Virus record (IMG/VR): IMGVR_UViG_3300045988_033140
Span: 41,447-105,446 of that record
DNA: 64,000 nt
Source of the DNA: a virus
Reading direction: 5' to 3' (one strand)
The first letter of the stretch is position 1. Each line of letters opens with the position of its first letter. A model generated the notes under the pieces. That model worked only from the letters and a program-made list of their open reading frames with translations, was not told the DNA's origin and searched no databases. Below, in pieces: positions 7,671-61,415 of the stretch. The translations under genes were made by a program, and so were the position numbers.

Positions 7671-7671
7671 G

Positions 7672-43398: not shown

Positions 43399-43412
43399 TT
43401 TATCACCCTCTC

Positions 43413-43916
43413 TTAATGGTGCACACGCACCTCGATATTAGAAAATCCCCAATTGGTTTTAGGAAACTCTTTTTCAGTAGGAATAGAAAATCCCTTCTTC
43501 ATCTTCTTAATTGCGGAATCGGTGATTCTGGCAACGCCAGTCCGCTGAGCATTACGCTCAAGAGCGGTTTCGACAGGGACATCAATGACTTCAAAGGTCA
43601 ATTTGGTATGCGGATCTGCGATCAACCGACCAAGGAGCTTTGCACGAGAAGCGGGGCTAATATGAGTCGCATCCGCAAACACAACATCAATACCAAGTTC
43701 CATAGCTTCGTTAATCTGTCGGACAAATTCGTCGAATACTTCAACTTCTTTGTCAAAGTAGCTATCACGATCGGTCAAAATGGACTGCCGCACGAAATCT
43801 CTAGAGACTACGCAAGTGGTGCGATGTTCTTCTTCGATTCGTTCTACCTCTTGCTTCACCCAAGTAGATTTTCCGCTACCGGGTACTCCAACCATGACTT
43901 TTAGTTCAGTTGTCAT
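43413..43916 (-). CDS. P-loop polynucleotide kinase-like protein (T4 Pnk / PnkP kinase-domain-like)
   Basis: GVPGSGKST Walker A in a 167-aa kinase-fold protein. It is adjacent to the calcineurin-type phosphoesterase, a split Pnkp-like arrangement. Confidence 0.5.
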   Translation of the reverse strand: MTTELKVMVGVPGSGKSTWVKQEVERIEEEHRTTCVVSRDFVRQSILTDRDSYFDKEVEVFDEFVRQINEAMELGIDVVFADATHISPASRAKLLGRLIADPHTKLTFEVIDVPVETALERNAQRTGVARITDSAIKKMKKGFSIPTEKEFPKTNWGFSNIEVRVHH

Positions 43917-44179
43917 TATCTTAACCTCCGTTCGACTTCAGCCATCACCCAAGCAATATCTTCATCAGATACCTCGGTTTCAAACTGAATAGAGCAATTT
44001 TCACCTTTTACTCTTGCTTCAATGAGCAAATTAACAGCATCTTCAAGGTCCTGCTGATGCTCTATAAAAGGAGAAAAAGCTCGATTCTCTTGAGCACAAG
44101 AACATGGGACAGGAGACCAAAGGTCGGACTTGCATCTTGGACTATCGTGATAACCTAACATACCATGCGAATGAGTCAT
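43916..44179 (-). CDS. Hypothetical Cys/His-containing protein (87 aa)
   Basis: Intact ORF. Stop overlaps the kinase start. Confidence 0.4.
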   Translation of the reverse strand: MTHSHGMLGYHDSPRCKSDLWSPVPCSCAQENRAFSPFIEHQQDLEDAVNLLIEARVKGENCSIQFETEVSDEDIAWVMAEVERRLR

Positions 44180-44334
44180 TACTTTTCCTCCTGTTCAATA
44201 AACTGCTGAATGATAGCCATTGATTTTTCAATGTCATTTAGCTCGTCATCAATGAATACGCCGCTCCAATCCAGACTATCAATAATACCATCAAGGGTTT
44301 CCAACGCTTTAACAGCGTCATTTTTAGTGACCAT
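44179..44334 (-). CDS. Hypothetical small acidic protein (51 aa)
   Basis: ATG after AAGGAAG. TAA overlaps the next ATG (TAATG). Confidence 0.3.
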   Translation of the reverse strand: MVTKNDAVKALETLDGIIDSLDWSGVFIDDELNDIEKSMAIIQQFIEQEEK

Positions 44335-44368
44335 ACTTCATAACTTCCTTTCTTAACTTTCTATATAT

Positions 44369-44397
44369 ATTATAATATATATTTATAAAAAAATCAA
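44369..44397 (-). promoter_or_regulatory. Sigma70-like promoter (TTGATT-17-TATAAT)
   Basis: The -10 is at 44369-74 and the -35 at 44392-97, minus strand. It sits immediately after the terminator hairpin at 44395..44430. Confidence 0.5.
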
Positions 44398-44430
44398 AAG
44401 GTTCTAAGAATTAGAACCTTTTGATTTTTA
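44395..44430. terminator. Terminator hairpin (CAAAAGGTTCTAA-gaa-TTAGAACCTTTTG + ATTTTT)
   Basis: Seen directly. Confidence 0.65.
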
Positions 44431-44431
44431 T

Positions 44432-44911
44432 TTAATTAGTTTGATCAGTAAAATAGACTTGTGAAAGTTCACCAATGTCCTCAATCTCGCAATCGTTTAT
44501 TTCAAATGGCCAATCTACCCATAAATCAATATGATTTTCTAAAAAATTTAATGGATCTTTCTTAAAAGTTTTATAATCTTCCTCAGATAGTTCAAGTTCT
44601 CCATGGTAATATCCGCCTCGTAAATAACCAGTAACCCAATCTACTTCTGCATCTATAGTAACTTTATGAGTTACCTCAATTGGATTGTCAAGAGAGATAT
44701 AATATTTTTTGCCATTGATTTTTTTCCAAAATGAATAATTACTCTTTGGATAGCCGACTTTTCTTTCTAGAATATCTTCCTTGGTATTAGACTGCAACAC
44801 AATGGCTGGGTTTTTACGCGGATCTTGACCAATTGGGTGGAAATCTACTCCATCCGCGCCGGTAATTTCAAACCATTCTTTCCATCCTGTTCCTTTTTGC
44901 CATTCAGCCAT
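44432..44911 (-). CDS. Hypothetical protein (about 159 aa)
   Basis: Start set at the ATG 8 nt after AGGAGG, which overlaps the Thg1-like stop. Confidence 0.4.
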   Translation of the reverse strand: MAEWQKGTGWKEWFEITGADGVDFHPIGQDPRKNPAIVLQSNTKEDILERKVGYPKSNYSFWKKINGKKYYISLDNPIEVTHKVTIDAEVDWVTGYLRGGYYHGELELSEEDYKTFKKDPLNFLENHIDLWVDWPFEINDCEIEDIGELSQVYFTDQTN

Positions 44912-44913
44912 TG

Positions 44914-45744
44914 TTATTCCTCCTGACATTGGATTAGAGATTCGATATACTCACGTCCCTCTCCGACAAATAGCGGAATATTTTTATCAATTTCCCAGCT
45001 AGAGCGAGTTACACCATCGGTCTCAGTTGTAACCTTGATGCAACAAGAACCATGCTTATACATAGGATGAAAGTCTTCCCAAGAAATCCCTTTCTCCGTG
45101 ATTAACATCTCTTTGATTTTCTCACAAGATTTACCTTGGAGTTCTTTGTGAGAGAAATTAGCCTGACCTACCATCTGAATAGAATTGCGGGTTGCATCTA
45201 GCTGACGCCAATAGACAAGGTTGGTGACCTCTTCCTTGGGGATATTGAAACAACGAGCATCAAACATGGCGCCCATTTGTGCTTTTACTGCATAAGTCTG
45301 GCCCAAATCATCTTGTGGGTAAGGGTTATCCATAGTCGCATGAGCGGCATAATAATCTAGATTCCTATGCCGAACTCCTTCATTAAATGCTTTGTTGAAA
45401 GCCATCGTTGCCATAGAAGCAGCGATAGAGCACATTTTCTGTACCTCGTAATCAAACCAAGCAGAGCTGTTGAGCCGCTTGTAATCAACAAGGATAAGAG
45501 TGATTTCATCACTTTGGGTATACCCTAATACGCACCCTTGAATGTTTTCACAGAGATATTTCATGGTATCCTGCATCGCACTAATCAGCACATCGTCAAA
45601 AGGCTTACTGAAACCACGGGTAAAGGTGTGGAAAGCTTTACCGTCAATGCGAATTGCAACTGGGGTACGGCGCATTAACTTAGTCTTAGGAACGCTTTCA
45701 TAGAACTCTTTCATCCGAGTTCCAAGTTCATCATAAATAGGCAT
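44914..45744 (-). CDS. Thg1-like protein (tRNA-His guanylyltransferase family, 3'-5' nucleotidyl transferase)
   Basis: VAIRIDGKAFHTFTRGF and GYTQSDEITLIL match Thg1 catalytic motifs. ATG 10 nt after AAGGAG. Confidence 0.75.
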   Translation of the reverse strand: MPIYDELGTRMKEFYESVPKTKLMRRTPVAIRIDGKAFHTFTRGFSKPFDDVLISAMQDTMKYLCENIQGCVLGYTQSDEITLILVDYKRLNSSAWFDYEVQKMCSIAASMATMAFNKAFNEGVRHRNLDYYAAHATMDNPYPQDDLGQTYAVKAQMGAMFDARCFNIPKEEVTNLVYWRQLDATRNSIQMVGQANFSHKELQGKSCEKIKEMLITEKGISWEDFHPMYKHGSCCIKVTTETDGVTRSSWEIDKNIPLFVGEGREYIESLIQCQEE

Positions 45745-45772
45745 TTTCAATCTTCTCCTTTCTTATACATAT

Positions 45773-45801
45773 ATTATATAATAAAATAATAAAAAAATCA
45801 A
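45773..45801 (-). promoter_or_regulatory. Sigma70-like promoter (TTGATT-17-TATAAT) fused to the terminator hairpin at 45799..45822
   Basis: Same unit as at 44369..44430. Confidence 0.5.
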
Positions 45802-45830
45802 GGGAGCTTTTTACTCCCTTGATTCTTCTT

Positions 45831-46094
45831 TTAATCCTTGCTCTTTCCGAGATTACTGGTCCTAAAATAGCTACCAATCCAACCGAGCGTACCGGCGCAA
45901 AGTGGAATCATATCCTTGGTAAACCAAGTTGTCTGGAACAAAGTATTTAGACCATCAGTGAGAATATTACCAATGGTAATAGAAGCCACTCATCCTCCGA
46001 AATAGCACAGCCAAAAAGAGATAAAGGGAAGAACGAGTACTGTTGCAATTATCAAAGCAATAGCTCCCAGAATAGCCAGAAAATCATCCATCAT
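45831..46094 (-). CDS. Small membrane protein with an internal in-frame TGA (codon 35), or two tiny ORFs
   Basis: ATGATG 9 nt after GGAG. It reads MMDDFLAILGAIALIIATVLVLPFISFWLCYFGG[TGA]VASITIGNILTDGLNTLFQTTWF.. to TAA. Continuous hydrophobic helices lie on both sides of the TGA. Confidence 0.25.
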
Positions 46095-46112
46095 AATAAT
46101 AAACTCCTTATA

Positions 46113-46394
46113 TTAAAATAAAACATCGCACTCAAACTGAACGCTATAGGCAGAACGAGGATGACTTTTACATCTATCAACCCACTCATAATGCCCCAAT
46201 ACAGCTTCTTCTCTAGTGGCATAACGTGCCACAATAACCATATTATGGTTTCCTCGCCAAACCGCGGTTTCATAACCTTGGTCTGCGGTCAGACAAGTGT
46301 CAATAGTATAATCATCAACCTGATCGCGCCCAATGAGATCGGAATCGTGATTGTTGTAAACAATACCAAATATTAAATCCATAAGATTATCCAT
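46113..46394 (-). CDS. Hypothetical protein (93 aa)
   Basis: Intact ORF. Confidence 0.4.
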   Translation of the reverse strand: MDNLMDLIFGIVYNNHDSDLIGRDQVDDYTIDTCLTADQGYETAVWRGNHNMVIVARYATREEAVLGHYEWVDRCKSHPRSAYSVQFECDVLF

Positions 46395-47118
46395 TGCGTT
46401 TCCTCTTTTCCTTCTTTTTCGTAGCTACATCAATAGTCTGTCGATGTACAGAGTAGATTTTTGAGGTAAGCCCATTCTTCATCAACTTATTTAGATTGAC
46501 TGGGCTGTAGTTAATTGCGTCAGAGCAAACATTTAGATGTCTGTCATCATTTTTGTGACGACGATCATGGACATGACCATGAATATTAAACACCCAAGGC
46601 ATCATAGGAAGAGGCTCATGGGAGAGAATGAGTTTTTCCCCAATCATGAGAGGTCCCTCATAGATCTCGTCAAATAGATTATTGTCCGCAAAGACTTCCC
46701 AATACTCAAAAGGGGAATGGAAGTCATACCCCTCGGTAATAGAATACTGACAACCGGGGTAGACGCGTTTCATTTCATCAAGAGCCTCAGATTTTTGAAA
46801 GACTTCTTTGGGGAACTTGCGAGAAATCTTTTTGCGCTCATAATTACTGCGGCCGGCGTCATGGTTCCCCATAATAAGTACCTTATAACCACGAAGTTTA
46901 GCGCACATAGCCGGGTCGCCGCAGTCTCCCAAGATAATCAGAACATCTTTCTTACCAACTTTGCTATTGATAAGTTTAACCTGCTCTTCATCGGAAGGAC
47001 GACCTGGAGTTCCAGCGGCGAGTTCTTTATCACCAAAATGAGGATCTGAATATACCCAAGTTGTCTGTCCATTCCATCTTTCGTTAAAGACTTTATACAG
47101 TCCGGGAATCATCACCAT
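46387..47118 (-). CDS. Calcineurin-like metallophosphoesterase
   Basis: DPHFGD, GDCGD and GNHD motifs. Confidence 0.65.
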   Translation of the reverse strand: MVMIPGLYKVFNERWNGQTTWVYSDPHFGDKELAAGTPGRPSDEEQVKLINSKVGKKDVLIILGDCGDPAMCAKLRGYKVLIMGNHDAGRSNYERKKISRKFPKEVFQKSEALDEMKRVYPGCQYSITEGYDFHSPFEYWEVFADNNLFDEIYEGPLMIGEKLILSHEPLPMMPWVFNIHGHVHDRRHKNDDRHLNVCSDAINYSPVNLNKLMKNGLTSKIYSVHRQTIDVATKKKEKRKRNG

Positions 47119-47855
47119 TCCTCCTTCTTAGAAAGGTCAATTGCGTCGGCAGCATTAAAGATATGTTCATCAAAGCTGTCTAAGTCTAACAATACAGTAT
47201 AACCAGTATACCAACTTGCACAATCCAAATCAACTTTGTGGTCTTGTGCATACCACCAAGCTCCACCATCCCAATCTGGAATTTCATCGCTCCAGTTATT
47301 TCGTTTTAACAGATATGGAATAGGAGTATGGCCGTGCACGCAAATTTCTTTATCACCAAAAATAGGCTCCTTAGAGTGCCAATGGCATCTATCCCAAAGT
47401 AAATCGTCGTCATTAGGGATAGCATCATCCTGCATTGGATTAAAGCCAGCATGACAGAGATGAATAGTGATTCCCTGTTCATTTACATATTTCTTATAGG
47501 TTGGTAGTTTCTTGAGATAATTCCACCAGCCAGTTTTCATTGGTTCTAAAAGCCAGTCAAGGAAAGTTTCTCCACCCCCATTTTGAGAAAGTAAAGCAAA
47601 GTTTTTCCCAAGTACTCCGCATCCTTCTCTCCGCACTTCATCTTCCATGGCTTTTACCAGCATATCTTCATGGTTGCCTTTAAGATAGATAAAACGCTTA
47701 TCTTGAGCAACTGCCTTGATAGTCTCCCAAGGATTTGGACCTCTATCTCCGGCATCGCCGAGAAAATAAACCGTATCATCGGGTTGTAAGAAATCCTGAA
47801 TCTGCTTCAGTAGATCCAATCTACCGTGCAAATCAGAGCACGCATATGTAGCCAT
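47112..47855 (-). CDS. Ser/Thr-protein-phosphatase-like metallophosphoesterase (lambda PPase / ApaH-like)
   Basis: DLHG, GDAGDRG and GNHE motifs. Confidence 0.7.
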   Translation of the reverse strand: MATYACSDLHGRLDLLKQIQDFLQPDDTVYFLGDAGDRGPNPWETIKAVAQDKRFIYLKGNHEDMLVKAMEDEVRREGCGVLGKNFALLSQNGGGETFLDWLLEPMKTGWWNYLKKLPTYKKYVNEQGITIHLCHAGFNPMQDDAIPNDDDLLWDRCHWHSKEPIFGDKEICVHGHTPIPYLLKRNNWSDEIPDWDGGAWWYAQDHKVDLDCASWYTGYTVLLDLDSFDEHIFNAADAIDLSKKEEW

Positions 47856-48277: not shown

Positions 48278-48306
48278 ATTATATAATATATTTTATAAAA
48301 AATAAA
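48278..48306 (-). promoter_or_regulatory. Sigma70-like promoter (TTTATT-17-TATAAT) fused to the terminator hairpin at 48304..48327
   Basis: Seen on the minus strand. Confidence 0.45.
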
Positions 48307-48325
48307 GAGAGCCGTAAGGCTCTCT

Positions 48326-49087
48326 TTATACCTCCCAATCGCGCGTTGAGTAATATCTAGGGCAAGAAGGCATCGGTTTTACCTTGTGGAGATTGCGCTT
48401 ATGTCGCTCTTCAATGTTTTTATAAACATCATAAGATGGATAATGTCCTTGCAGTAGGAAGTTATCGAGTTCATCATAGGTAAATCCAAGATTATCTTCA
48501 TCTGTCTTGCCACTAAGACCATCTTCTGGCGCTTTAAAGATAAACTCGTTAGGGATACCAAGTGCTTTGCCAATCTGCCGCACTTCTGAAACTGTATATT
48601 CAGATAGTACGGAGAAATCGCCAGCTGCGTCTCCGAACTTAGTGGAATAGCCAATAAAATCCTCGCTCTTATTACAAGTGTTTGCTACCCTGCCATGTTC
48701 ACGTGCGGCAATCGCGTAAAGGACGGCCATGCGGATGCGGGCTGGAGAATTAGAGGTAATCTGTGGAATGCTTTCGACCGAGCCTTCAAAATTATAGCCG
48801 ACGTCGATAGCATTATATAGAGATTTGCAAACTTCGTCGATATTAACCTCATAACTATCAATACCGAGATAGTCAATTACTTTATTGGCAACATCAATGT
48901 CATGCTGATTGCCCTGTGGCATTTTTACACCAATAACCCTATTCTTTCCGAGCGCTTTAACAAGCAGGGCCGCAGTTACGGTGCTATCTTTGCCACCAGA
49001 AATACCAATGATAGCTTTGCAATCTGGACCATTATTTACGAAGTAATCCTTAATCCAATTAGTGATATTGGTAATTACGTTCTCCAT
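48326..49087 (-). CDS. nadE: NH3-dependent NAD+ synthetase (NadE, PP-loop ATPase)
   Basis: PP-loop SGGKDS and typical length (253 aa). Confidence 0.7.
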   Translation of the reverse strand: MENVITNITNWIKDYFVNNGPDCKAIIGISGGKDSTVTAALLVKALGKNRVIGVKMPQGNQHDIDVANKVIDYLGIDSYEVNIDEVCKSLYNAIDVGYNFEGSVESIPQITSNSPARIRMAVLYAIAAREHGRVANTCNKSEDFIGYSTKFGDAAGDFSVLSEYTVSEVRQIGKALGIPNEFIFKAPEDGLSGKTDEDNLGFTYDELDNFLLQGHYPSYDVYKNIEERHKRNLHKVKPMPSCPRYYSTRDWEV

Positions 49088-49500
49088 GTTTTCAGTTCTC
49101 CTTCTGCTTCTAGTTTACTGTATAGCATATCTAATGCCGTGTAAGCGCTACCAAGTCCTGCTCTATCATCAAGCAAAATATTATAATACAGTTTTCTTGT
49201 TGGCTTACGCTTCTCAATCAGAACATCCTCATTGATTGCATCAAAAGGAATGTTATTCTGATTGAGATAATCTGCAATATATGGATATCGCTCTTCCTGA
49301 GAAGCACTAAATACCACGAGCTTAGCATAGGGCTGCCATTTCCGCAACATTTCACTTACACGCTCGTAAGTATAATCTTCGTCACGGAAATTATGAACCG
49401 TGTAATCAAAGTCGAAGGCGATAATAATATCACCATACCGCTTATATTCATCATAAAGTCTATCAACTACTCTATTGATGTCGAGGAATGGATCGTTCAT
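49075..49500 (-). CDS. Small HAD-like phosphatase/nucleotidase candidate
   Basis: HAD motif I FDFDYTV in a 141-aa protein. Confidence 0.35.
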   Translation of the reverse strand: MNDPFLDINRVVDRLYDEYKRYGDIIIAFDFDYTVHNFRDEDYTYERVSEMLRKWQPYAKLVVFSASQEERYPYIADYLNQNNIPFDAINEDVLIEKRKPTRKLYYNILLDDRAGLGSAYTALDMLYSKLEAEGELKTWRT

Positions 49501-51221
49501 TAGAAACCCTCCTTATACAACCGTGCACGGATATCGTGCAAAGTGTCCTCTTTAATCATGTTGCCATCACGGAATACAGGTTGAAGCAGATTATCTTCAC
49601 CAAGATGTTCTGCCCAAGTTAGTTCATCTTCATAACTCTGACCATCAAGAGCTACTCGACAGCAGCCTTTTTGAGATTTCTTCCAGCTAAGAGCCTTGGG
49701 TTGCTTGTAAATCATAATAGGCTTACCATTTGCATCTTCCGCGTAAGTTGCCTTAACAGCAATACCAAAGGTATCACGAGTGTAAGGATTGAAGCTGCCA
49801 TCTTCCTCAAGACACATAAAGGAGAAAGAGCCAACACCAAGAGAAACATTGTTAATAGCAAATCCATTATTCTCAAGGCGTTGATAAATACGAGCGCAAC
49901 GCTGAGGAGTAATACTGTCACCATAGATAGCTTTAATGTGAGGATCAAGGACCCTATAACCCTTGCTATTGATGGTTCCACCGAAAATATCCCACAGACA
50001 CCAGACAGTTCCCTTATCCTCAGAAGTAAGCTCATAGTTTTCAGTCAGCTTAACATCATAGCCTTCAATGTACCAATATTTGCAATCAGTCCAAGCGCCG
50101 CGCTCATTAGTCCATTCGACTGTAATGTCAGCGAGAGCATATTCTCCATTGTAAGAGAAAATCTGCTGAGTATCCTTATCCAAGTCCCGCTCAAAGAACT
50201 CAGCAATGAACTCACTTGGATCATCTTTTAGGTTCTCCCACTCCTGCTCGTCGAGATAGATGATTTCCTTACCTGCGATAATCTCAACAGGGTCGCCGCT
50301 ATCACCACGGATAGAAAGACAACCATCATGTGCCATGATTTCATCTTTCAAGTGCGGGAGAATTTTCTCTACGAGATTCCAATAGTCGTAACTATCAGAC
50401 ACCATAGAAAAATTGTGGTGAGGATAAATCTCTGTCAGAAGTCTGCGGATGTGAGTAATCTCGTCTCCATCAACCGCGTAGTTAGAGCACATGACACTAT
50501 GCTCGGTAGAGATTGCGCCATAAGCAACAGATTCCTTAGTGCAGTCGCAGTTATAGTTCTTCTCAAGCCACATAATTGCGGGAACAGTCGCGGTGTTCAG
50601 GAAAGATAGACACCAACCCGCAGAACTCTTAATTGCGGATTCCGCGGATTGCTGACCGCGCATAGAGAAATCACCAAGCAGTCGAGCTACAGGAACATTG
50701 TCGTCGCAACTCATGTCACGGTATTTCTGCACAATCTGGCGATACCGATAGCCAACTTCCGCGGATACCTGCGTATGCCACATGGTGGCAGACAGAAGGG
50801 TCTCAATAGTATTCACCAACCAAACGAAGTTGGGGTGAGTGTTGGTAATCTCGATCTGCGGGACGCCGATCGCGGTTCTGGTGCCTTCAGGGACAGCAGA
50901 GATTTCCAGAGGAAGATAGCCCAGTCGATGCAAATCTCTAATTTTCTCAGACTGAAATGCACCTGGACCGAGAGTAGCGTTGAGAACTCGCTCGTACTCT
51001 GCGACAACTTCCTCTTCTGGACGATTAAAGAAGTTATCGTTAAAACCCTCAATGAGATACTCCTTAATAAATGCCTGTAGACCGAACAAAGTTACCTTGT
51101 CTACATCCTTAAGGCGGCTCATACGAGGAGTGTAGTAGCTAACCATCTTAGTTAGTCCAACGGGATACTGTTCATGATGGGTACTCTTATAAAAGTCAAT
51201 CATCAAAAGAGGATTAAACAT
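49500..51221 (-). CDS. nadV: Nicotinamide phosphoribosyltransferase (NadV/NAMPT)
   Basis: N-terminal MIDFYKSTHHEQYP signature. 573 aa. Confidence 0.85.
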   Translation of the reverse strand: MFNPLLMIDFYKSTHHEQYPVGLTKMVSYYTPRMSRLKDVDKVTLFGLQAFIKEYLIEGFNDNFFNRPEEEVVAEYERVLNATLGPGAFQSEKIRDLHRLGYLPLEISAVPEGTRTAIGVPQIEITNTHPNFVWLVNTIETLLSATMWHTQVSAEVGYRYRQIVQKYRDMSCDDNVPVARLLGDFSMRGQQSAESAIKSSAGWCLSFLNTATVPAIMWLEKNYNCDCTKESVAYGAISTEHSVMCSNYAVDGDEITHIRRLLTEIYPHHNFSMVSDSYDYWNLVEKILPHLKDEIMAHDGCLSIRGDSGDPVEIIAGKEIIYLDEQEWENLKDDPSEFIAEFFERDLDKDTQQIFSYNGEYALADITVEWTNERGAWTDCKYWYIEGYDVKLTENYELTSEDKGTVWCLWDIFGGTINSKGYRVLDPHIKAIYGDSITPQRCARIYQRLENNGFAINNVSLGVGSFSFMCLEEDGSFNPYTRDTFGIAVKATYAEDANGKPIMIYKQPKALSWKKSQKGCCRVALDGQSYEDELTWAEHLGEDNLLQPVFRDGNMIKEDTLHDIRARLYKEGF

Positions 51222-51238
51222 TGTATCAATTCCTTTCC

Positions 51239-52084
51239 TTAAATGATTTCTTGTAGTTTGTAGACAGTAATGTCATCACTAAAGAGGATATCATGTCCTA
51301 GCGAATCAGTTGTATAAACGTGTTTAATCAAACCACTTTCGAGTAACTCACCCTTGAAAATAGAATCTTCGCAGTGAGTGATGAAGAGGTAAATATCTGC
51401 GGCGCCCGCATCTTTCAGAGCCTGCGCTGAATGGTAGAATGTACCGCCCTTAGAACAAATATCATCAACAATGAGGATATTCTTGTCTTTTACAATCTCT
51501 CTATTGATAATATCCACACCGAGAATTTTGCCAGTTTCCCAATTTCTGCGCTTCATGCCGAAACTATAAGGGCGCTGACAATTCTCAGAATATCTCTTCA
51601 TAGCCCCTTCGTCGGGATAATACATGACAAGATTATCGTTTCCGATATCGAGTAAAGTGCGTTCAACGAACATAGTATTCGGACGATTTTCCACTCTATC
51701 AATTAGCGCAGGTGTTACATTACTATGAGCATCATAGATAACTACCTTGGTGAAATCAAGAGAGTTGATAATATCTGCAAAACTCTTGAGAGTGAATACA
51801 TCGGTTGCGTCCTTAACTCTATCCATGCGGGCGTGCGGACAGTAGGGCATATAAAGTGTGACATTTTTACAATCAGCATAGTGCTTCCGCAGGCAAATTA
51901 GCGAGAACAATTCTGCATCGTTGTTATACTTCCAGTAGATATCGACATTATAGGTCTTAAATAAGGAATCTTTAGGAGCAGTCATGTGCAGCGTTCCATC
52001 TGGAAAATGATCTTGACTAACTGGTATCCAAGTTTTATCCTCAAAACTCCAAGCTTTGTCTATTCTAGAGCGAACAAATAGCAT
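51239..52084 (-). CDS. prs: Ribose-phosphate pyrophosphokinase (PRPP synthetase)-like
   Basis: PRPP-binding loop VDDICSKGGT and PYCPHARMDR. Confidence 0.7.
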   Translation of the reverse strand: MLFVRSRIDKAWSFEDKTWIPVSQDHFPDGTLHMTAPKDSLFKTYNVDIYWKYNNDAELFSLICLRKHYADCKNVTLYMPYCPHARMDRVKDATDVFTLKSFADIINSLDFTKVVIYDAHSNVTPALIDRVENRPNTMFVERTLLDIGNDNLVMYYPDEGAMKRYSENCQRPYSFGMKRRNWETGKILGVDIINREIVKDKNILIVDDICSKGGTFYHSAQALKDAGAADIYLFITHCEDSIFKGELLESGLIKHVYTTDSLGHDILFSDDITVYKLQEII

Positions 52085-52095
52085 ATTAAGCCTCC

Positions 52096-52644
52096 TTAAA
52101 CAATTTCAATCTGGCAAGATTCCATAACTTTAAGAGCTGCTTCATGTGCTGCAACACTCGTACCAGCGCACCAGTCTTTGTGACACTTGATCTTCTGATT
52201 AGGACGAAAAGCCCGCATGATAAGAGCATTGGACACCACACAAATGTCGGTGCATACGCCGCAAATTTCAATGGTAGTATCTTCATCTACTGACATATTT
52301 ACAGACATACTTCCCCAAATGAAAGTGCCAAAGGTATCCTTATCGACGATGTAGAGATTCTTCACCTTGGAAACTCCATTAACGAGTTCAGGAATAATCT
52401 CCCATCCTTCAGTATCCTTGATACAATGCGGGACCGGTAGGAACTTTCCTTCCAATGTATCCAGATAATCTGGGCCATGGGTATCACGGGTGAAAATTAC
52501 CGTGTCATATTCATTGATGTGCGCAGCAATATTCTTCGCAGCCACTTGCGCGGCTTCAGAGCCAAGAGACCCTGTTACGAAATCGTTCTGCATATCAATT
52601 ACAATTAGAATTTTCTGCATAATATAGAAAACTCCTTTCCTCAT
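52096..52644 (-). CDS. Isochorismatase-family hydrolase, probable nicotinamidase (PncA-like)
   Basis: ILIVIDMQNDF and a catalytic Cys (CGVCTDIC). Confidence 0.6.
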   Translation of the reverse strand: MRKGVFYIMQKILIVIDMQNDFVTGSLGSEAAQVAAKNIAAHINEYDTVIFTRDTHGPDYLDTLEGKFLPVPHCIKDTEGWEIIPELVNGVSKVKNLYIVDKDTFGTFIWGSMSVNMSVDEDTTIEICGVCTDICVVSNALIMRAFRPNQKIKCHKDWCAGTSVAAHEAALKVMESCQIEIV

Positions 52645-52655
52645 TCTTTATATAT

Positions 52656-52684
52656 ATTATAAAATATATTATTATAAAAATAAA
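52656..52684 (-). promoter_or_regulatory. Sigma70-like promoter (TTTATT-17-TATAAT) fused to the terminator hairpin at 52683..52715
   Basis: Seen on the minus strand. Confidence 0.45.
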
Positions 52685-52719
52685 GAGACTCTTATCAGCT
52701 AGATAAGAGTCTCTTGTAT

Positions 52720-53106
52720 TTAGTTTTCTAGTCCAATAGGAACGACATCCATAACACTATCGGGATACAAACTCCATCCGCCCCAAGCTTTCTTACTACC
52801 TTGAATTTCAGCTAGCTTTTGATTAGCGTCGATCATATCTGCTACATAGATAAGCGTATCGTCGTTAAACTGGTGTGACTGTGACATTTGCGTAATAATT
52901 GTTCGTTGAGTTTCAAAGGAAGCCAAAAAGCTTCTATACTCGCAGGTAGTTAAAAGCATTGCCAATGCAATAATAACTGCTACTATTCCAGTAAGCAGTG
53001 TACTTACAAGATAGAGTGTGCTATCCCAACAACTCTTATTGAGTGCCTTCAATGAAACACCAAAGACGATGATACAAATAAAAAGAATAATACCCCAGTA
53101 AAGCAT
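52720..53106 (-). CDS. Small membrane protein (128 aa, 2 TM)
   Basis: ATG 8 nt after AAGGAG. Confidence 0.4.
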   Translation of the reverse strand: MLYWGIILFICIIVFGVSLKALNKSCWDSTLYLVSTLLTGIVAVIIALAMLLTTCEYRSFLASFETQRTIITQMSQSHQFNDDTLIYVADMIDANQKLAEIQGSKKAWGGWSLYPDSVMDVVPIGLEN

Positions 53107-53118: not shown

Positions 53119-53274
53119 TTAATCTTCAAAATGATTGGCAAGGTGTAAAAACATAAAAGAAAAATTTCCTGCAATAAAACCAGTAATATAAATAGCAGAA
53201 GGAGGGACTATTGTTGCTAGCATAGAGCCAACAACAATAGTAATCAGCCACAGACCGTAGAAGATAATTCTCAT
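53119..53274 (-). CDS. Tiny membrane protein (51 aa)
   Basis: Its ATG overlaps the RNA ligase TGA (ATGA). One long hydrophobic stretch. The track ORF 53126..53509 in this region is considered spurious. Confidence 0.3.
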   Translation of the reverse strand: MRIIFYGLWLITIVVGSMLATIVPPSAIYITGFIAGNFSFMFLHLANHFED

Positions 53275-54539
53275 ACTTCGTCCTGTGCCTCCTCCATATC
53301 GGGAGTAGTCTCAGTCTCTTTGATAATACCCTCAAGTACCTTGAACTCGTAAGTCTTAGACTTGAAAGCAGTGAAGGTGCGGCGGTTAACGATACGAACC
53401 ACAACGCCCTCTTTAACATGAGTTTTGCCGATAGGATCGGCCAAGTCCTCGAAATACTTGTTAATGCGGTCCTGCAAGTCCTCGGCAGTAGTGAACTTGA
53501 AGTTCTCAATCACCGGGACACGATTAAAGCCATGCTTCTCACACCAAGCAGTAATCTCGTCAGGAGTCCACTCGCGCTGACCATTCTCGGAAGTAATGCG
53601 ATAAATCCACATATGAGACTCACCGGGCTTGCAGCCGTAGGAGAAGATAGACTTCTTACCGAACAACTTTTGGAAAGCCTTATCTTTTAGCTTGGAGTTA
53701 TCGCCGATAGGCATGATGGTATCGTTCTCAGAGGGACCGTAGTACCCCACTACCTCGTAAAAGACCTCCATACCAGGATCAAGATGGGGTTTCAATGCCT
53801 CATGGTGAGACATACGAAATAGATCATTGCCGTAGTAGCCCTGAGAGTTCTCAGTTACAACGCAACGGCGCGTACCGAGAACATAAGCCTGCTTCAGACG
53901 CTTCTTCATATGGAATAGACGACGGAAGAAGCCATTAGGTAGCTCAGCAAAGGTGTTCATGGATCGCTGAGAAGTGCCATGCATCTTAAGAGTCATATTC
54001 AGCTCATCGCCGGGACGGAACTTATCCAGATTGTATGCAAGCTGCTCGGTGTCAGTGTGCATTGCAAACTCAGGATAGGTAATACCCTCTGCCTTACGAC
54101 CCTTGTAGGAAGTCTTAGGAGTGGTGCTCGGAGTCTTACGCTTAGGGATATACTTACGGCAGAACTCCTTGCCATTGATAGTATTTACCTTATTTCCGTT
54201 CTTCCAATGCTGATTGCCAAAAACCTCATAGACACGCTCAAGAGAGATGACGATGCCAGAACTCTCGTTGCCACGAAGCTTGATAGCCCGCACGTGAGAG
54301 CTATTTTCCAAGTATCCGCCTTGAGGAGTGCCATCAAGATTCTTCCGATATAGGGTGAAAGCGTCACCGAACCATCTCTCGATCTCTCCGTCCGTAGGAA
54401 GATAAAGCACTAACTCATTCTCCTTCATATTGGGTCCAACAATAACACCTTCATTAAAACAATCTGCCAACCACAGATTATCAGAATTAGGATCTTTATG
54501 GAGATTATTCAGTTTTGTCACTAGAGCGTAATAAGCCAT
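53271..54539 (-). CDS. ATP-dependent RNA ligase (Rnl2/Rnl5-like nucleotidyltransferase with KxHG motif)
   Basis: Motif I LKMHGTS matches T4 Rnl2 (KIHGTN). N-terminal OB-like domain. 422 aa. GC-richer than surroundings. Its 5' end overlaps the upstream homing-endonuclease gene by ~38 nt, so the true start may be internal. Confidence 0.55.
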   Translation of the reverse strand: MAYYALVTKLNNLHKDPNSDNLWLADCFNEGVIVGPNMKENELVLYLPTDGEIERWFGDAFTLYRKNLDGTPQGGYLENSSHVRAIKLRGNESSGIVISLERVYEVFGNQHWKNGNKVNTINGKEFCRKYIPKRKTPSTTPKTSYKGRKAEGITYPEFAMHTDTEQLAYNLDKFRPGDELNMTLKMHGTSQRSMNTFAELPNGFFRRLFHMKKRLKQAYVLGTRRCVVTENSQGYYGNDLFRMSHHEALKPHLDPGMEVFYEVVGYYGPSENDTIMPIGDNSKLKDKAFQKLFGKKSIFSYGCKPGESHMWIYRITSENGQREWTPDEITAWCEKHGFNRVPVIENFKFTTAEDLQDRINKYFEDLADPIGKTHVKEGVVVRIVNRRTFTAFKSKTYEFKVLEGIIKETETTPDMEEAQDEV

Positions 54540-55254
54540 TTAATTCCTGTTCCTCCTCTTTACTAATTCGTTTATAGATAAAACCTTTATATGTATTTCT
54601 CTATCCATTTAATACTCGATAAATTGCTTTATCGGTCTTTGCTTCTGGGCAAAATTCTCGATACGCCGAAATTGCAGTAGGAAAAATAGCTAATAATTGA
54701 CCATCTTTATCATACTTGGCAATCGGCTATCTTCTTGCTTCCAGTGCCTTTTTCTTTGCATCTTCTCGATGACCATCTTGATAAGCTTGCTTTAATTTTT
54801 CACTTCGCTCTTCTTTTAAGGAAGGATTGTCGATAAACTTCTATTTTAGAGAGTTGCTAATCTTTTCATTTCTTTCGTGACTATAAGTCCGATTTTTAGC
54901 AGCTAAAGTCATATGTCGTCGATATTCTGGATCCTCCCATAGCAACTTAACAGATTCGCCTATCTATTTTCTAACTTCTTCCGTTTGATAATTTCCGCCC
55001 GGAGAGACATTGTAACCAAAATCTGTATCTAAAAGATTTAATTCTTTGATTGTGTCTATCTCTTTTTGTTGAATTAAATCTTCATTATCAGACTCTAATA
55101 TCACTTCTTTAGTTACATTTTCCCAGCCATATTTTTCTATAGCATATCCGACGCGCTATCCTTTATATCTTCCTGATGCTCGCTGTTCGATAGAATTTTT
55201 AGTAATTCCGCAGTATTTTTTCCCATTTGGGAAAGTGTATAAATAACAGATCAT
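54502..55254 (-). CDS. Free-standing GIY-YIG homing endonuclease (I-TevI-like with NUMOD-like region), 250 aa, about 7 in-frame TAG
   Basis: ATG 8 nt after AGGAGG. The N-terminus reads MICYLYTFPNGKKYCGITKNSIEQRASGRYKG[Q]RVGYAIEKYGWENV. It is followed by NUMOD-like KNRTYSHERNEKISNSLK[Q]K. The frame is open only if TAG is sense. No listed track ORF corresponds to this frame. Confidence 0.65.
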
Positions 55255-55312
55255 CTAAATAACCTCCTAAATCTTTCTACTTATATTAAAAGTCATTAGG
55301 AGGTTATTTAGA
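55255..55312 (-). promoter_or_regulatory. RBS-sequestering stem-loop (16-bp perfect inverted repeat CTAAATAACCTCCTAA/TTAGGAGGTTATTTAG) immediately 5' of the homing-endonuclease ATG
   Basis: The 3' arm contains the AGGAGG of the endonuclease gene. The hairpin also sits 20 nt past the upstream gene stop, so it may double as a terminator. Confidence 0.45.
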
Positions 55313-55337
55313 AGTTTTGTCCAATTGCTACTTCATT

Positions 55338-55628
55338 TTATTCCTCTTCATTCACATCGTAGCCTTGACTAATCATGACTGCTACAGCCTTATAAACCAT
55401 GCGTCCAAGGCTCTTAGACTTGCCCTTCCGCGCAAGTCCCATTTCAATCAGATTGCCGATAAGTCTTGCCATTTTCTGAGAAGTCAACGGCTGAAGAATC
55501 ATATCTTGGCTTTTGATTTCATCAATCGTCATGGCTTCCTCGGACTCATTCAAGATGCTAAGAATACGCATCTTGTATTCTCCCTCTTTTTCGGGAGAAG
55601 GGCGATGAACTCTTACTCTTCCAGGCAT
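55338..55628 (-). CDS. Hypothetical protein (96 aa)
   Basis: Intact ORF. Confidence 0.4.
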   Translation of the reverse strand: MPGRVRVHRPSPEKEGEYKMRILSILNESEEAMTIDEIKSQDMILQPLTSQKMARLIGNLIEMGLARKGKSKSLGRMVYKAVAVMISQGYDVNEEE

Positions 55629-55847
55629 TTACTTAACCCCCTTGTAGGAAATGACCTCAAGATTTTCAATCTTTGTGGAAATAGATGTCTTACCAGTATA
55701 GACTACTGCAATCTTGGTGTTTCTATCAACGCAGATGACTTTACCAGTGCGACCGTCTCTCACTCTTACGATAGTTCCATCACAAACATAGGGCATCATA
55801 TAGCTATCTCCTCTCTTGTTACATCGTAATGTCGATACCTTTTTCAT
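55629..55847 (-). CDS. Hypothetical protein (72 aa)
   Basis: Intact ORF. Confidence 0.4.
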   Translation of the reverse strand: MKKVSTLRCNKRGDSYMMPYVCDGTIVRVRDGRTGKVICVDRNTKIAVVYTGKTSISTKIENLEVISYKGVK

Positions 55848-56223
55848 GCAGGATATTGATACACTCCTGCAAATAAGCGTCGTCGTGTTCAGGGTAAATC
55901 ATATTACCCTGCTTAGCAGATTCATAAATCTCTTCATACTTAGAATCAGAAATCCATGTATCCTCACCTAATGTACTTCCTCGCCAGTTAGGATTCTTCC
56001 AAATCTTATCTGGATGATAGCCACGCTTCTCCATCTCGTCCATAATCAGATAATGATAAGCGACAAGTAGAGCAGGGTCATGTGTAAAAGCGTAGTCTAC
56101 AGTTGCGTGTTTCTTGCCCCAGCCTTTTCCTCTCAAAGCCGCACATTCTCGATGCTGACCCAAGAGGCGCTGACGGTCAAGATAGGGAATAAGTTTTTGA
56201 TGCCAGATACGAATGGTTATCAC
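55819..56223 (-). CDS. Hypothetical protein, possibly pyrimidine-dimer DNA glycosylase (T4 endonuclease V-like)
   Basis: Loose similarity of WHQKLIPYLDRQRLLGQHRECAALRGKGWGKKH to the DenV N-terminal helix. Weak call. Confidence 0.3.
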   Translation of the reverse strand: MITIRIWHQKLIPYLDRQRLLGQHRECAALRGKGWGKKHATVDYAFTHDPALLVAYHYLIMDEMEKRGYHPDKIWKNPNWRGSTLGEDTWISDSKYEEIYESAKQGNMIYPEHDDAYLQECINILHEKGIDITM

Positions 56224-56250
56224 TTCTTTCTTCCTTAACTTTCTATATAT

Positions 56251-56280
56251 ATTATAATATATTTTATGATATTTTTCAAA
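56251..56280 (-). promoter_or_regulatory. Sigma70-like promoter (TTGAAA-18-TATAAT)
   Basis: Seen on the minus strand upstream of 56223. Confidence 0.4.
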
Positions 56281-56369
56281 TAGATATTTATTTTGGCCAA
56301 AAGTTGATATACACTCATTATCATTTTTTAGATAACAATAGAGAAAATAATGAAAGGGGCAGATTGTCT

Positions 56370-56633
56370 ATGTATTCTCAGATGATGAGCGGAGAAAAAG
56401 TAACTCCCTATTTAGTGCGTCTAGTAGCTGATACTGAAGACGAGATTGCCACCCTTCCTACCCACTATGCCCCTGGCAGCACTTGCGAGGTTGTCGCAAC
56501 TTCTACAGTTTATAGATTGAACAACCAGGGTCAATGGATTAAACAAAAGTCAAGTGGTGGCGGAGGCGGTGGGACAGTTGTCGTTGAAGGCAGCTTAGCC
56601 GATATTGCAGACATTGATAAATTATTTGGTTAA
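56370..56633 (+). CDS. Hypothetical protein (87 aa) with Gly6 linker
   Basis: ATG 9 nt after GAAAGGGG. It lies inside the larger alternative-start ORF in the track. Confidence 0.4.
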   Translation: MYSQMMSGEKVTPYLVRLVADTEDEIATLPTHYAPGSTCEVVATSTVYRLNNQGQWIKQKSSGGGGGGTVVVEGSLADIADIDKLFG

Positions 56634-56646
56634 GGAGTGAGTCCTA

Positions 56647-56904
56647 ATGGCAGTCGCATTAGAAAACCTTATTGACCTTAACCTTTTATCTCACTATGAT
56701 ACAAAACTCAAAGAATGGGTTAAGGAACAGATTAAAAAAGGTGGAAGCATTGAAGTAACACAGCGTTCTGAGCTTCCTGAGGTAGGCGAAGAAGGCAAAA
56801 TCTACTTTGTAGAAGATGCCATCTTGCAATATACCGCAGCAAATGGCTATCAAAAGATCGGTGGAACTGGAAGTCCGCAGAAAATTGAGTGGCATGACTT
56901 TTAA
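56647..56904 (+). CDS. Hypothetical protein (85 aa)
   Basis: AAGGAG RBS. Plus-strand islet inside a minus-strand block. Confidence 0.45.
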   Translation: MAVALENLIDLNLLSHYDTKLKEWVKEQIKKGGSIEVTQRSELPEVGEEGKIYFVEDAILQYTAANGYQKIGGTGSPQKIEWHDF

Positions 56905-56908
56905 TTAA

Positions 56909-56947
56909 AAAGGGTCGAAGTATTTAATACTTCGACCCTTTATTTTT
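56909..56947. terminator. Strong bidirectional terminator (AAAGGGTCGAAGTATT-taa-TACTTCGACCCTTT + T8)
   Basis: 14-bp stem between the convergent genes ending at 56904 (+) and 56948 (-). Confidence 0.75.
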
Positions 56948-57742
56948 TTATCTACCCATATAATAGTTTGGATCCTTCTTCAACCACCAGTCGATGTTCT
57001 CAGGGTCTTGCCAACGCTCCCAAATTGTATCAAGAGATTCAATGTCATGGAAATACATTTCTGCGCCAGGTCGGATTAACCGATCGTCATGGTAGTGGCC
57101 GCAGAGCCATACTTCCCAATCAACTTTACTTTTGATATCTTCAAGCCAAAGTTCCATACTCTTATCTACTTTTGATTGGTCAAGACCAGAGAGAAACAAA
57201 TCTCTTGGCTCCCAAGAAATGGGACAAGTATGGGTTAGGACAAAATCGTAACGCTTGCCCTCAACCCATGCGCCAATTTCATCCATTTCTTTTTTGGTTA
57301 GCTGTTCGTCCTTGAACCAACCAGTCCAGCTATCTGTATCTTCTGGACGGCCTCCAAGTCGATACCACTTATCTACGGAATATGCCCCGCCGATAACAAG
57401 GACAGAGTAGTCATGAATGTTGTAGCTCTCTCCATCAAAAAGGTATCTGATATTCGGAAATTCTGGCTCATAATAGACGCCGCCATCGACGTCTTCGTCA
57501 TACATTTGCTCCATGGAAAGGTTTTCTGGACGCTCTTCATGGTTTCCGCGAACCGCGTAAATGCGGAAGCCTGTATTATTAACATTCCTTTTATTCTTGC
57601 GGTCTGTCTTATTCAGATAGAAATTAAGCCCCATATCGCCAAGAATAATCAATGCAGTTTCATCAGGAGGATATCCAATATGACTAAGTCTTTCAAGGAC
57701 TTGACCATGAGTATCTCCTGTAACAAGCCAGTTTTTAATCAC
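56948..57742 (-). CDS. Calcineurin-like metallophosphoesterase
   Basis: GDTHG, GDMGLN and GNHEE motifs. Confidence 0.65.
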   Translation of the reverse strand: MIKNWLVTGDTHGQVLERLSHIGYPPDETALIILGDMGLNFYLNKTDRKNKRNVNNTGFRIYAVRGNHEERPENLSMEQMYDEDVDGGVYYEPEFPNIRYLFDGESYNIHDYSVLVIGGAYSVDKWYRLGGRPEDTDSWTGWFKDEQLTKKEMDEIGAWVEGKRYDFVLTHTCPISWEPRDLFLSGLDQSKVDKSMELWLEDIKSKVDWEVWLCGHYHDDRLIRPGAEMYFHDIESLDTIWERWQDPENIDWWLKKDPNYYMGR

Positions 57743-58532: not shown

Positions 58533-58827
58533 CACCAATAGCCTCCATTTCTTTAATATATCTTTCGGGAATAGGGTGTACGGTAATTAGTGTATCTTTG
58601 CCACGCCAGATATAAATGTTACCTCGATACACTCTAATAGAGCAGGTATTAGTCTGATCTCTCTTGTTCTGAAGATACGAGAAGAACTTAGGGAACTTCT
58701 GGAACTGATTGATAGTCGCACCAGATCGCTTAGCTTGTTTAGCCAACTTCTTAGCTTCTGCGAAACTCTCACATCCCTCAGTTCTCTGAACAATGCGCTC
58801 TTTGCTATGACGAGTAATTTTTCCCAT
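58525..58827 (-). CDS. Hypothetical protein (100 aa)
   Basis: Intact ORF. Confidence 0.4.
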   Translation of the reverse strand: MGKITRHSKERIVQRTEGCESFAEAKKLAKQAKRSGATINQFQKFPKFFSYLQNKRDQTNTCSIRVYRGNIYIWRGKDTLITVHPIPERYIKEMEAIGDD

Positions 58828-61414: not shown

Positions 61415-61415
61415 A

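Follow-up and report, generated by a model that had tools for sequence, protein, structure and literature searches.

Few antiphage strategies are as widespread as the depletion of NAD+, and phages are known to counter it mainly by NAD+ reconstitution pathway 1 (NARP1). In NARP1, the enzyme Adps makes ADP-ribose pyrophosphate (ADPR-PP), and Namat joins nicotinamide to ADPR-PP to form NAD+ directly (Osterman et al. 2024, bioRxiv 10.1101/2024.02.11.579819). Structures of the NARP1 enzymes have been reported (PMC12774641, PMC13586617). In NARP1-AP, Adps and Namat are accompanied by the Macro-domain protein Adpp, and the Poa1p-like Macro family has been demonstrated to broaden the reach of NARP1 to aRES defence (Osterman et al. 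2026, bioRxiv 10.64898/2026.01.28.702374). Here, we analyze a cluster of five genes at positions 48326-52644 of a 64,000-nucleotide (nt) stretch of viral DNA (positions 41,447-105,446 of IMG/VR record IMGVR_UViG_3300045988_033140); this whole stretch is referred to as the window. With a probability of roughly 60%, we predict that these genes make up an extended and self-contained form of the NARP1 operon, a "deamidated NARP1", by which NAD+ would be rebuilt from ADP-ribose (ADPR) and nicotinamide via deamidated intermediates.

The five open reading frames (ORFs) are contiguous and co-directional on the minus strand, with intergenic gaps of no more than 17 nt or overlapping ends. In the direction of transcription, they encode a PncA-like isochorismatase (52644..52096, 182 amino acids (aa)), the Prs-like protein that we assign to Adps (52084..51239, 281 aa), a NadV/Nampt-like transferase of the Namat clade (51221..49500, 573 aa), a HAD-like protein (49500..49075, 141 aa), and NadE (49087..48326, 253 aa). 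The five genes had been listed at these positions in a preliminary description made from the sequence, and profile searches found all five of its family assignments to be correct at the family level.

The cluster is similar to NARP1 in the adjoining Adps-Namat pair, the Adps residues and truncation, the Namat core, the arginine of the selectivity-clamp loop, the first clamp aromatics, and the fact that no adenylyltransferase would be needed. It differs from NARP1 in the transferase, where Asp215 is replaced by Ala211, Ala242 by Ser, His187 is lost, and the clamp motif carries an insertion. The operon also differs, since a nicotinamidase and NadE are added and the predicted product of the transferase is nicotinic acid adenine dinucleotide (NaAD), not NAD+. 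The phosphatase gene inside the operon recalls NARP1-AP, and in many relatives of the window, the very slot of the HAD gene is taken by a Poa1p-like Macro gene; the window phosphatase, however, has a predicted capless HAD fold and no Macro domain. NARP2, which is composed of the KVP40 NadV/Nampt and NatV/Nmnat enzymes, likewise uses an enzyme of the Nampt superfamily to restore NAD+ in infected cells, but it proceeds through phosphoribosyl pyrophosphate (PRPP) and nicotinamide mononucleotide (NMN) with an adenylyltransferase, and no Nmnat was found among the ~47 window ORFs scanned. The Preiss-Handler pathway (PncA, PncB, NadD, and NadE) shares with the cluster a nicotinamidase as the first step, the NH3-dependent amidation of NaAD as the last, and the use of nicotinate, whereas its PncB and NadD steps would be replaced here by Adps and a single ADPR-PP transferase.

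A close counterpart is found in the gut phage phAss-1 (OQ749652.1, proteins WIC39685-WIC39689), where the order is likewise nicotinamidase, Adps, transferase, HAD (46% identical), and NadE; both the Asp-to-Ala and the Ala-to-Ser change are present in its transferase. The phAss-1 transferase differs in that it is 32% identical to that of the window and has an uninterrupted clamp motif, and the phage uses genetic code 15 and is annotated by homology only. The phAss-1 operon (locus L100, 94500-103500) is flanked by a tRNA array; TAG is reassigned in this phage, and the operon genes have no internal stops under code 11. The five-gene cluster is not discussed in the phAss-1 paper. Full-text literature searches of incomplete coverage returned NARP1, NARP1-AP, NARP2, NARP3, and RyDEP, and no connection of NARP1 to NadE, a nicotinamidase, NaAD, or a HAD phosphatase. 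The core of the cluster is known NARP1; its nicotinate/NaAD branch and its HAD accessory seem not to have been described before.

Assignment of the Prs-like and NadV-like genes

The preliminary description had named the 281-aa protein a PRPP synthetase with which the cluster would supply its own PRPP. The protein was found to be 40% identical to the validated Adps from SPbetaL1, with a score of 162 bits, compared with 62 bits for Prs from E. coli. The match to Pribosyl_synth / ribP_PPkin (E value of 1e-25) lies under the curated cutoff, and the score against TIGR01251, the NCBIfam model for Prs, is 90 where the cutoff is 113. The best cellular Prs in the PDB matches with an E value of 9e-13. 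The C-terminal alpha11-alpha12 module is absent, and the alignment stops ~35 residues short of the end of E. coli Prs; the same shortening is seen in the alignment for the Adps proteins of ICP1, SPbetaL1, and wV8. In one structural study, the loss of this module of the PRPP synthetases has been called a defining signature of Adps (PMC13586617).

The active site was compared by alignment to the ICP1 and SPbetaL1 sequences from GenBank, the PDB set that was searched having no Adps structure. Residues F27, R86, H120, D158, K178, D207, and D208 of the window protein correspond to Phe18, Arg87, His121, Asp161, Lys185, Asp212, and Asp213 of ICP1 Adps, the acceptor and catalytic residues whose roles have been described (PMC13586617). 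All seven are kept in 74 Adps sequences from variant operons, like that of the window, and in 10 from canonical operons. The motif HS[DN]VTPALI is also present. The PP-loop reads C210-S211-K-G-G-T in the window protein and Cys215-Asp216-x-Ala-Ala-Ser in ICP1; because the validated SPbetaL1 enzyme has Ser-x-Gly-Gly-Thr, the ICP1 pattern is not universal. The gene adjoins the transferase gene with a 17-nt gap, and according to a published rule, 97% of the genes of the Adps clade adjoin Namat. The protein is an Adps-clade enzyme, predicted to convert ADPR and ATP to ADPR-PP and AMP. Its higher similarity to validated Adps, the scores below the Prs cutoffs, the Adps truncation, and the Adps residues led us to reject a true PRPP synthetase, and with it the supply of PRPP by the cluster.

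There is no systematic difference between the two operon types in the active-site residues of Adps, and the pyrophosphorylated donor is therefore probably the same in both. A phage family of 547 residues, phrog_12872, matches Adps (residues 75-218) and the transferase (residues 399-567), and natural Adps-Namat fusion proteins thus seem to exist.

The 573-aa transferase contains the NAMPT_N and NAPRTase domains and matches PRK09198 with an E value of 9e-132. The closest PDB entries are 9W5X/9W5W (E value of 2e-121), which are the SPbetaL1 Namat according to the paper of the depositors (PMC12774641), while Nampt structures match at ~1e-36 to 1e-42. A tblastn search of 50,697 phage records gave a bimodal distribution, with NARP1-type enzymes at 1e-54 to 1e-134 (Felix-O1-like, ICP1, Staphylococcus K-like, and Bacillus phages) and the NARP2 Nampt enzymes of the KVP40/KP27 type at 1e-9 to 1e-22; the identity to the KVP40-type enzyme is 28% (E value of 5e-22). 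The Nampt-like core is kept as R305, D307, H241 (the histidine of TEHS), F185, R188, D9, and Y11, with Arg306, Asp308, the TEHS histidine, Phe189, Arg192, Asp13', and Tyr15' as the reference residues. Beyond this core, R36, G434, D435, G464, S465, F466, and T481-R482-D483 are conserved together with F185, R188, R305, and D307. The residue R36 is equivalent to Arg40, the stacking residue of the selectivity-clamp loop, for which Arg, Lys, or Tyr is expected and which is an arginine in 45 of the 53 variant sequences defined below, and both adenine-stacking residues, R36 and F466, are retained in the window transferase. The NadV-like gene had been taken for an NMN-forming NadV; this identity did not stand, given the placement of the protein in the Namat clade. 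The two genes together very probably belong to NARP1.

Two insertions were located by alignment. The first, of nine residues within residues 469-479 (49785..49817, minus strand), interrupts the adenine "selectivity-clamp helix", whose motif has been given as GS-X-phi-X-phi-X-phi-TRD with X aromatic (PMC12774641). The window reads GSFSFMC-LEEDGSFNP-YTRD where canonical Namat has GS[FY]T[Y]Q[Y]xTRD, such that two of the aromatics, the first and the second, remain in place while the third is shifted. The motif is uninterrupted in other variant-clade members. The second insertion, of ~85 residues (residues 319-402; 50016..50267, minus strand), follows the RGDSGDP segment; neither SPbetaL1 Namat nor the closest relative in GenBank contains it. 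Bacillus and Felix-O1-like phages have insertions at the same site after RGDSGDP, and four homologues (P0193, P0136, P0125, and P0164) reach 800-1114 aa with 300-600 extra residues that have no Pfam match.

According to the literature, NARP1 is recognized by the pairing of a Prs-like gene with a Nampt-like one. The puzzle of the adenylyltransferase is answered by known biology. As had been noted before, no NMN or nicotinic acid mononucleotide (NaMN) adenylyltransferase is recognizable in the window: a Pfam scan of ~47 ORFs, nearly all of those of at least ~126 aa in the 64 kb, returned no match of the PF01467 type. The missing step is not a gap in NARP1, which keeps the AMP moiety inside ADPR (bioRxiv 10.1101/2024.02.11.579819) and at no stage degrades ADPR to a mononucleotide.

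The base pocket of the transferase and its linkage to PncA and NadE

The window transferase was compared with the SPbetaL1, Felix-O1-like, and KVP40-type enzymes. Two residues of the pyridine-base pocket are changed. Ala211 (codon 50589..50591, minus strand) replaces Asp215 of SPbetaL1 Namat, which is Asp219 in human Nampt, and Ser238 (codon 50508..50510, minus strand) replaces Ala242 of the nicotinamide pocket. The protein reads SFLNTATVPA in place of SF.G[TS]D[TS].PA and AISTEHS in place of IPATEHS. In the crystal structures of Namat, Asp215 forms a hydrogen bond to nicotinamide and Ala242 lines the same pocket (PMC12774641), and in human Nampt, Asp219 forms the equivalent bond and has been described as the determinant of the specificity for nicotinamide (PMC7096376, PMC9322656). 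Mutation of this residue in SPbetaL1 Namat (D215A) lowered the activity 8-fold and left some activity with nicotinamide. The change D219S, in a study by Khan et al. from 2006, reportedly lets Nampt accept nicotinic acid.

The distribution of these changes was determined from an alignment of 156 sequences, consisting of the 150 best representatives at 50% identity, taken from an exhaustive search of 1.84 billion proteins, and six references. The columns were extracted from a MAFFT alignment, and ICP1 Namat was omitted from the checks of N-terminal residues because the N-terminus is split in its record. Positions 215 and 242 covary almost perfectly: Asp with Ala in 99 sequences, Ala, Ser, or Val with Ser in 52, and mixed pairs in 3. 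The variant sister clade comprises 53 of the 156 sequences. Position 187 is His in 99 of 99 canonical sequences and another residue always predominates in the variants, with no overlap between the residue profiles of the two groups at this position; Gly213, His207, Ser239, and Val304 also switch between the clades. All of the ribose-phosphate contacts and most of the adenine contacts seen in the NAD+ complex, on the other hand, are kept in both clades. We read this pattern as the same ADPR-PP donor being used with a different base in the variant clade. In a neighbor-joining tree calculated without the diagnostic columns, 42 of 46 variant sequences form one pure clade and three more fall in a small basal group; the window transferase is sister or basal to canonical Namat. 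The pocket variant is a deep split and not scattered convergence. Since the changes from Asp215 to Ala211 and from Ala242 to Ser238 are clade-wide, the window protein, a Namat-clade relative by its sequence, is best not classified among the nicotinamide transferases.

The neighbors of the transferase gene were surveyed in ~85 viral loci. NadE accompanies practically all of the variant-type transferases, and a PncA-like gene does so too wherever the flank is available. At the loci with a canonical pocket, neither gene was found within 8 kb or the available flank in 9 of 9 cases. Both genes are also absent from the canonical reference loci in the stretches covered, which span several kilobases to either side for Cohnella and BPS13 and mainly the upstream side for SPbetaL1, wV8, and ICP1, as the records of these three end ~0.3-1.3 kb after the transferase gene. 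The linkage holds in divergent variant lineages with a canonical clamp motif (P0142, P0144, P0161, P0130, and phage phAss-1), and in P0130 a CinA-domain gene is added. NadE is rare in deposited phages, being found in 51 of 50,697 records. The preliminary description had proposed two parallel branches, an amidated one through NadV and a deamidated one through PncA and NadE. This arrangement fits poorly with a transferase that has no nicotinamide-binding Asp; the loss of this residue and the linkage of PncA and NadE to exactly that variant point instead to one linear, deamidated pathway.

A related locus, L099 (Logan SRR18474599_7485, 183-9228), encodes an isochorismatase, Adps, the variant transferase, components of an ABC transporter, a CinA-domain protein, and NadE. 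The CinA domain is the domain of the PncC-type NMN deamidase. The extra genes are a further sign of the deamidated theme, perhaps with the uptake of precursors.

The flanking enzymes, the proposed pathway, and its alternatives

The PncA-like protein matches the Pfam family Isochorismatase with an E value of 2e-22. Its top two PDB matches are 5ZN8 ("Isochorismatase") and 6KUA ("Cysteine hydrolase"), and the best sequence matches include the deposited pyrazinamidase/nicotinamidases 1ILW, 3S2S, 3PL1, 2H0R, and 3O90. The catalytic residues D17, K102, and C135 and the metal-binding residues D54, H56, and H73 align with those of the nicotinamidase structures; one further metal-binding His of some PncA enzymes is a Thr in the window protein. 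The gene is conserved beside Adps in the variant clade. We predict that 52096..52644 encodes a PncA-type nicotinamidase that would convert nicotinamide to nicotinate and NH3. A generic isochorismatase was rejected, because several solved relatives were deposited as nicotinamidases and the metal site is present.

NadE matches NAD_synthase (PF02540, E value of 6e-49) and scores 166 against TIGR00552, for which the cutoff is 64. The protein consists of a single synthetase domain and has no glutaminase domain. Among the listed PDB matches, 16 of 18 were deposited as NH3-dependent or plain NAD+ synthetases and 2 as glutamine-dependent enzymes. The gene at 48326..49087 is thus predicted to encode an NH3-dependent NAD+ synthetase that would form NAD+ from NaAD, NH3, and ATP. 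The ammonia freed by the nicotinamidase would balance the ammonia used by NadE.

The HAD protein has a match to the BT0820-type HAD that is weak by sequence (E value of 4e-4). Residues D30-x-D32-x-T34, K103, and D111-D112 are invariant in 45 homologues. The AlphaFold2 (AF2) model has a pLDDT (the per-residue confidence score of the model) of 92, and its best fold match is 2OBB, the capless HAD BT_0820, followed by phosphatases of the CTD and PNK types. Sequence and model together suggest that 49075..49500 encodes a capless (C0) phosphatase of the HAD family. Homologues lie directly beside canonical Adps-Namat genes in Bacillus phage BPS13, in Kida and SalinJah (by coordinates), and in the chromosome of Cohnella ginsengisoli, and another lies beside the Adps-transferase genes of phAss-1. 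Between the transferase and NadE, the variant operons have a HAD gene at 14 loci, a Macro-domain gene at 41, and neither of them at 21; the two never occur together in this slot. The Macro gene is Poa1p-like; the copy at locus L002 matches PF01661 and is 42% identical to a FADO gene annotated as ADPR-1''-phosphate phosphatase related protein. No Macro domain was matched in a Pfam scan of the window ORFs. The HAD protein is a recurrent NARP1 accessory. By analogy, it is plausibly a non-homologous replacement of the Macro-domain Adpp, at most a functional analogue, and would be expected to act on the same kind of substrate; 2'-phospho-ADPR derived from NADP is an alternative substrate. The question of whether the small HAD-like protein has another role had been raised at the outset; its family assignment stands, and to it are added the recurrence beside Adps-Namat and the place in the slot of the Macro gene.

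The Cohnella ginsengisoli locus (JAPDHZ010000003.1, L091, 6001-10463) encodes HAD, Adps, canonical Namat, a NUDIX/NrtR-like regulator, and an ADP-ribosylglycohydrolase, and resembles a cellular module for the recycling of ADPR that is regulated by NAD. Many RefSeq phage records (e.g., NC_018857.1, 7283-7675), as well as phrog_1238, name the NARP1-associated HAD "phosphoheptose isomerase", and "polynucleotide kinase" or "hydrolase" is used elsewhere. The first of these labels looks like a propagated misannotation.

From the homology, clade membership, residue patterns, linkage, and operon boundaries, we infer the enzymatic steps and the counter-defence role as follows. The starting substrates would be the ADPR and nicotinamide left by NADase immune effectors. 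The PncA-like nicotinamidase would first hydrolyze nicotinamide to nicotinate and NH3, and Adps would pyrophosphorylate ADPR with ATP to give ADPR-PP. The transferase, having lost the amide-binding Asp and gained a Ser, would then combine nicotinate with ADPR-PP to form NaAD and pyrophosphate, and the NH3-dependent NadE would amidate NaAD to NAD+. As a feeder reaction, the HAD phosphatase would strip the phosphate from phosphorylated ADPR, such as the ADPR-1''-phosphate from aRES-type defences, to give ADPR. No adenylyltransferase would be needed, because the adenylate stays within ADPR throughout. The earlier view that the cluster is of the type used by phages to rebuild NAD+ against NADase immunity holds. 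The broader proposal, in which a large and deep sister clade of Namat, common in gut phages and also found in bacteria, catalyzes the undescribed conversion of nicotinate and ADPR-PP to NaAD and forms the deamidated NARP1 with a phage nicotinamidase and NadE, while HAD proteins of the capless fold, as a second class of phosphatase in NARP1, substitute for the Macro-domain Adpp, stands at even odds in our estimation. If it is true, NAD+ reconstitution would be independent of free nicotinamide and could be adapted to hosts or defences that remove nicotinamide.

Several observations weigh against the deamidated pathway. The D215A mutant of SPbetaL1 Namat is still partly active with nicotinamide. 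In the clamp motif of the window, Tyr396 aligns to Cys470 or Phe477 and the nine-residue insertion follows; with the motif interrupted, ADPR-PP is not guaranteed to be the donor for this transferase. One variant locus (L030) has no NadE match, and a short contig of 4.6 kb (P0172) shows neither NadE nor the PncA-like gene, although it is uninformative. The linkage of the pocket to PncA and NadE is also largely a trait of the clade that reflects few independent events, namely the 42 sequences and the small basal group of the tree. Finally, the best PDB match of NadE is 3FIU, which scores only slightly above the ordinary archaeal NadE 2E18. The entry 3FIU is presumably the Francisella enzyme that prefers NaMN (NMN synthetase). 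The preference of NadE for NaAD or NaMN is not decided by sequence alone.

The alternative that survives best leaves the proposed chemistry untouched and differs solely in the biological role. The cluster could be a general metabolic module that raises NAD+ for replication (ligase, ribonucleotide reductase, and redox reactions) and has no dedicated counter-defence function. It has been published that NARP2 raises NAD+ even when no defence system is present, and the window is rich in genes of nucleotide metabolism. We nevertheless consider such a role fairly improbable, since ADPR and nicotinamide are abundant mainly after NADase attack, the published phenotypes of NARP1 deletion depend on defence, and the neighbors of the operon are RNA-repair genes of the sort usually associated with counter-defence.

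The strong evidence for NARP1 membership would also suit a canonical NARP1 pair with helpers, in which nicotinamide and ADPR-PP are converted directly to NAD+ while PncA and NadE boost the Preiss-Handler pathway of the host through the host PncB and NadD. The residual activity of the D215A mutant is in line with this explanation, as is the fact that PncA and NadE catalyze the first and last steps of the standard bacterial pathway. It leaves unexplained, however, why PncA and NadE are strictly linked to transferases that lack Asp215 and His187 and contain Ser242, and never to canonical ones, and the phage nicotinamidase would have to compete with the phage's own transferase for nicotinamide. 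On balance, we judge this division of labor to be improbable.

We think it quite unlikely that the genes operate as their Pfam and NCBIfam names suggest, with Prs making PRPP, NadV making NMN or NaMN, an adenylyltransferase being provided by the host (NadD, NadR, or NadM) or by the phage outside the window, and NadE completing the pathway. In favor of this route, Namat uses PRPP in vitro at a reduced rate (PMC12774641), the clamp motif of the window is interrupted, and the window covers 64 kb of a genome of ~145 kb. The Prs-like protein, however, sides with validated Adps, scores below the cutoffs for Prs, and is truncated in the same way as Adps. The operon slot is occupied by ADPR-specific accessories, either the Poa1p-like Macro phosphatase or HAD; the adenine-stacking residues R36 and F466 are retained; and natural fusions of Adps and Namat (phrog_12872) are indicated. 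In the published surveys, moreover, no phage has both NARP1 and the Nmnat pathway. A Francisella-like route, from nicotinate and PRPP to NaMN, from NaMN to NMN by the NadE homologue, and to NAD+ by a host NMN adenylyltransferase, is scarcely credible, for although 3FIU, presumably the Francisella enzyme, is the top match of NadE, its score is barely above that of the ordinary NadE 2E18, and the route requires a host adenylyltransferase and a PRPP-forming Prs, contrary to the evidence for Adps. In addition, the residues that exclude NaAD from the Francisella enzyme are presumably Tyr27, Gln133, and Arg236, and Gly20, Ala128, and Arg231 of the window protein are found at these places in the alignment.

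Operon boundaries, genomic setting, and implications

The edges of the operon were located by a consensus scan and sequence inspection, and the elements at the upstream boundary (52671..52715, minus strand) are consensus matches only. At this edge, the terminator hairpin of the preceding gene (52715..52683) is found together with a promoter-like site, CTGATA-16-TATAAT (52698..52671). At the other end, an intrinsic-terminator-like hairpin (48302..48329, minus strand) with a 12-bp stem and a T run overlaps the stop codon of NadE and marks the end of the operon. With a terminator and a promoter-like site upstream and a terminator at the NadE stop, the five genes look like a single transcription unit. 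For the PncA-like gene, the ATG at 52620, which is preceded by AAGGAG (52637..52632), is a more probable start than 52644. This set of genes was found again in more than 70 independent viral contigs, so the arrangement is not due to chance. A megablast search with the 4.3-kb cluster gave no match in the 50,697 phage records, and relatives were reached by protein searches only.

The window covers the part of a large phage genome that is devoted to replication and nucleotide metabolism, and encodes Pol III alpha, gyrase, anaerobic ribonucleotide reductase, ThyA, DHFR, and a protein with an S-layer homology (SLH) domain. No tRNA genes were found in the 64 kb. Close IMG/VR relatives are 93-99% identical, the longest being ~145-148 kb, and the closest GenBank relative comes from human faeces. 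The SLH-domain protein and an SPFH/flotillin-like protein are encoded at 37523-37969 and 41157-42653, respectively. The SLH domain and the anaerobic ribonucleotide reductase NrdD hint at an anaerobic Gram-positive (Bacillota) host, as has been predicted for phAss-1. A gene of the formate/nitrite transporter family (10094-10726; PF01226, E value of 1e-11) adjoins that of NrdD (11118-13004). Formate is the usual reductant of NrdD, and the transporter and NrdD may form an auxiliary pairing.

Genes of the RNA-repair type surround the NAD operon at 42838-47855 and 53271-58538. They encode an RNA ligase (53271-54539), a Thg1-like tRNA-His guanylyltransferase (44914-45750), an AAA_33 kinase (43413-43916), four calcineurin-like phosphoesterases (42838-43398, 46387-47118, 47112-47855, and 56948-57742), and a nucleotidyltransferase of the RlaP family (57735-58538). 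An RNA ligase also neighbors the operon at loci L002 and L096. These surroundings look like a counter-defence island against anticodon nucleases. Farther away, a MoxR-like AAA_5 ATPase (60455-61480) lies near a DUF2828/DUF7788 protein (62423-63913), and a pair that looks related is found upstream of the NARP1 operon at L002 (1162-3234 and 4502-5605). Directly upstream of the window operon is a gene for a predicted membrane protein of 128 aa (52720-53106), whose marginal similarity to the anti-phage protein KwaA (E value of 0.006) is probably not meaningful.

For annotators, a phage pair of "Prs + NadV" should not be taken for an incomplete pathway when an adenylyltransferase is missing. The current label of all these genes is "NadV/Prs", and that of the HAD gene is "phosphoheptose isomerase". 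If the variant works as proposed, a sequence rule for annotation would follow, with Asp215/Ala242/His187 on one side and Ala or Ser at 215 with Ser242 on the other. The findings raise the question of which property of the host, or which defence, selects for the nicotinate route and for HAD over the Macro phosphatase. If the variant operates in the proposed manner, it would represent a new enzymatic reaction in the biochemistry of NAD, and phages would own two chemically distinct routes for the reuse of ADP-ribose.

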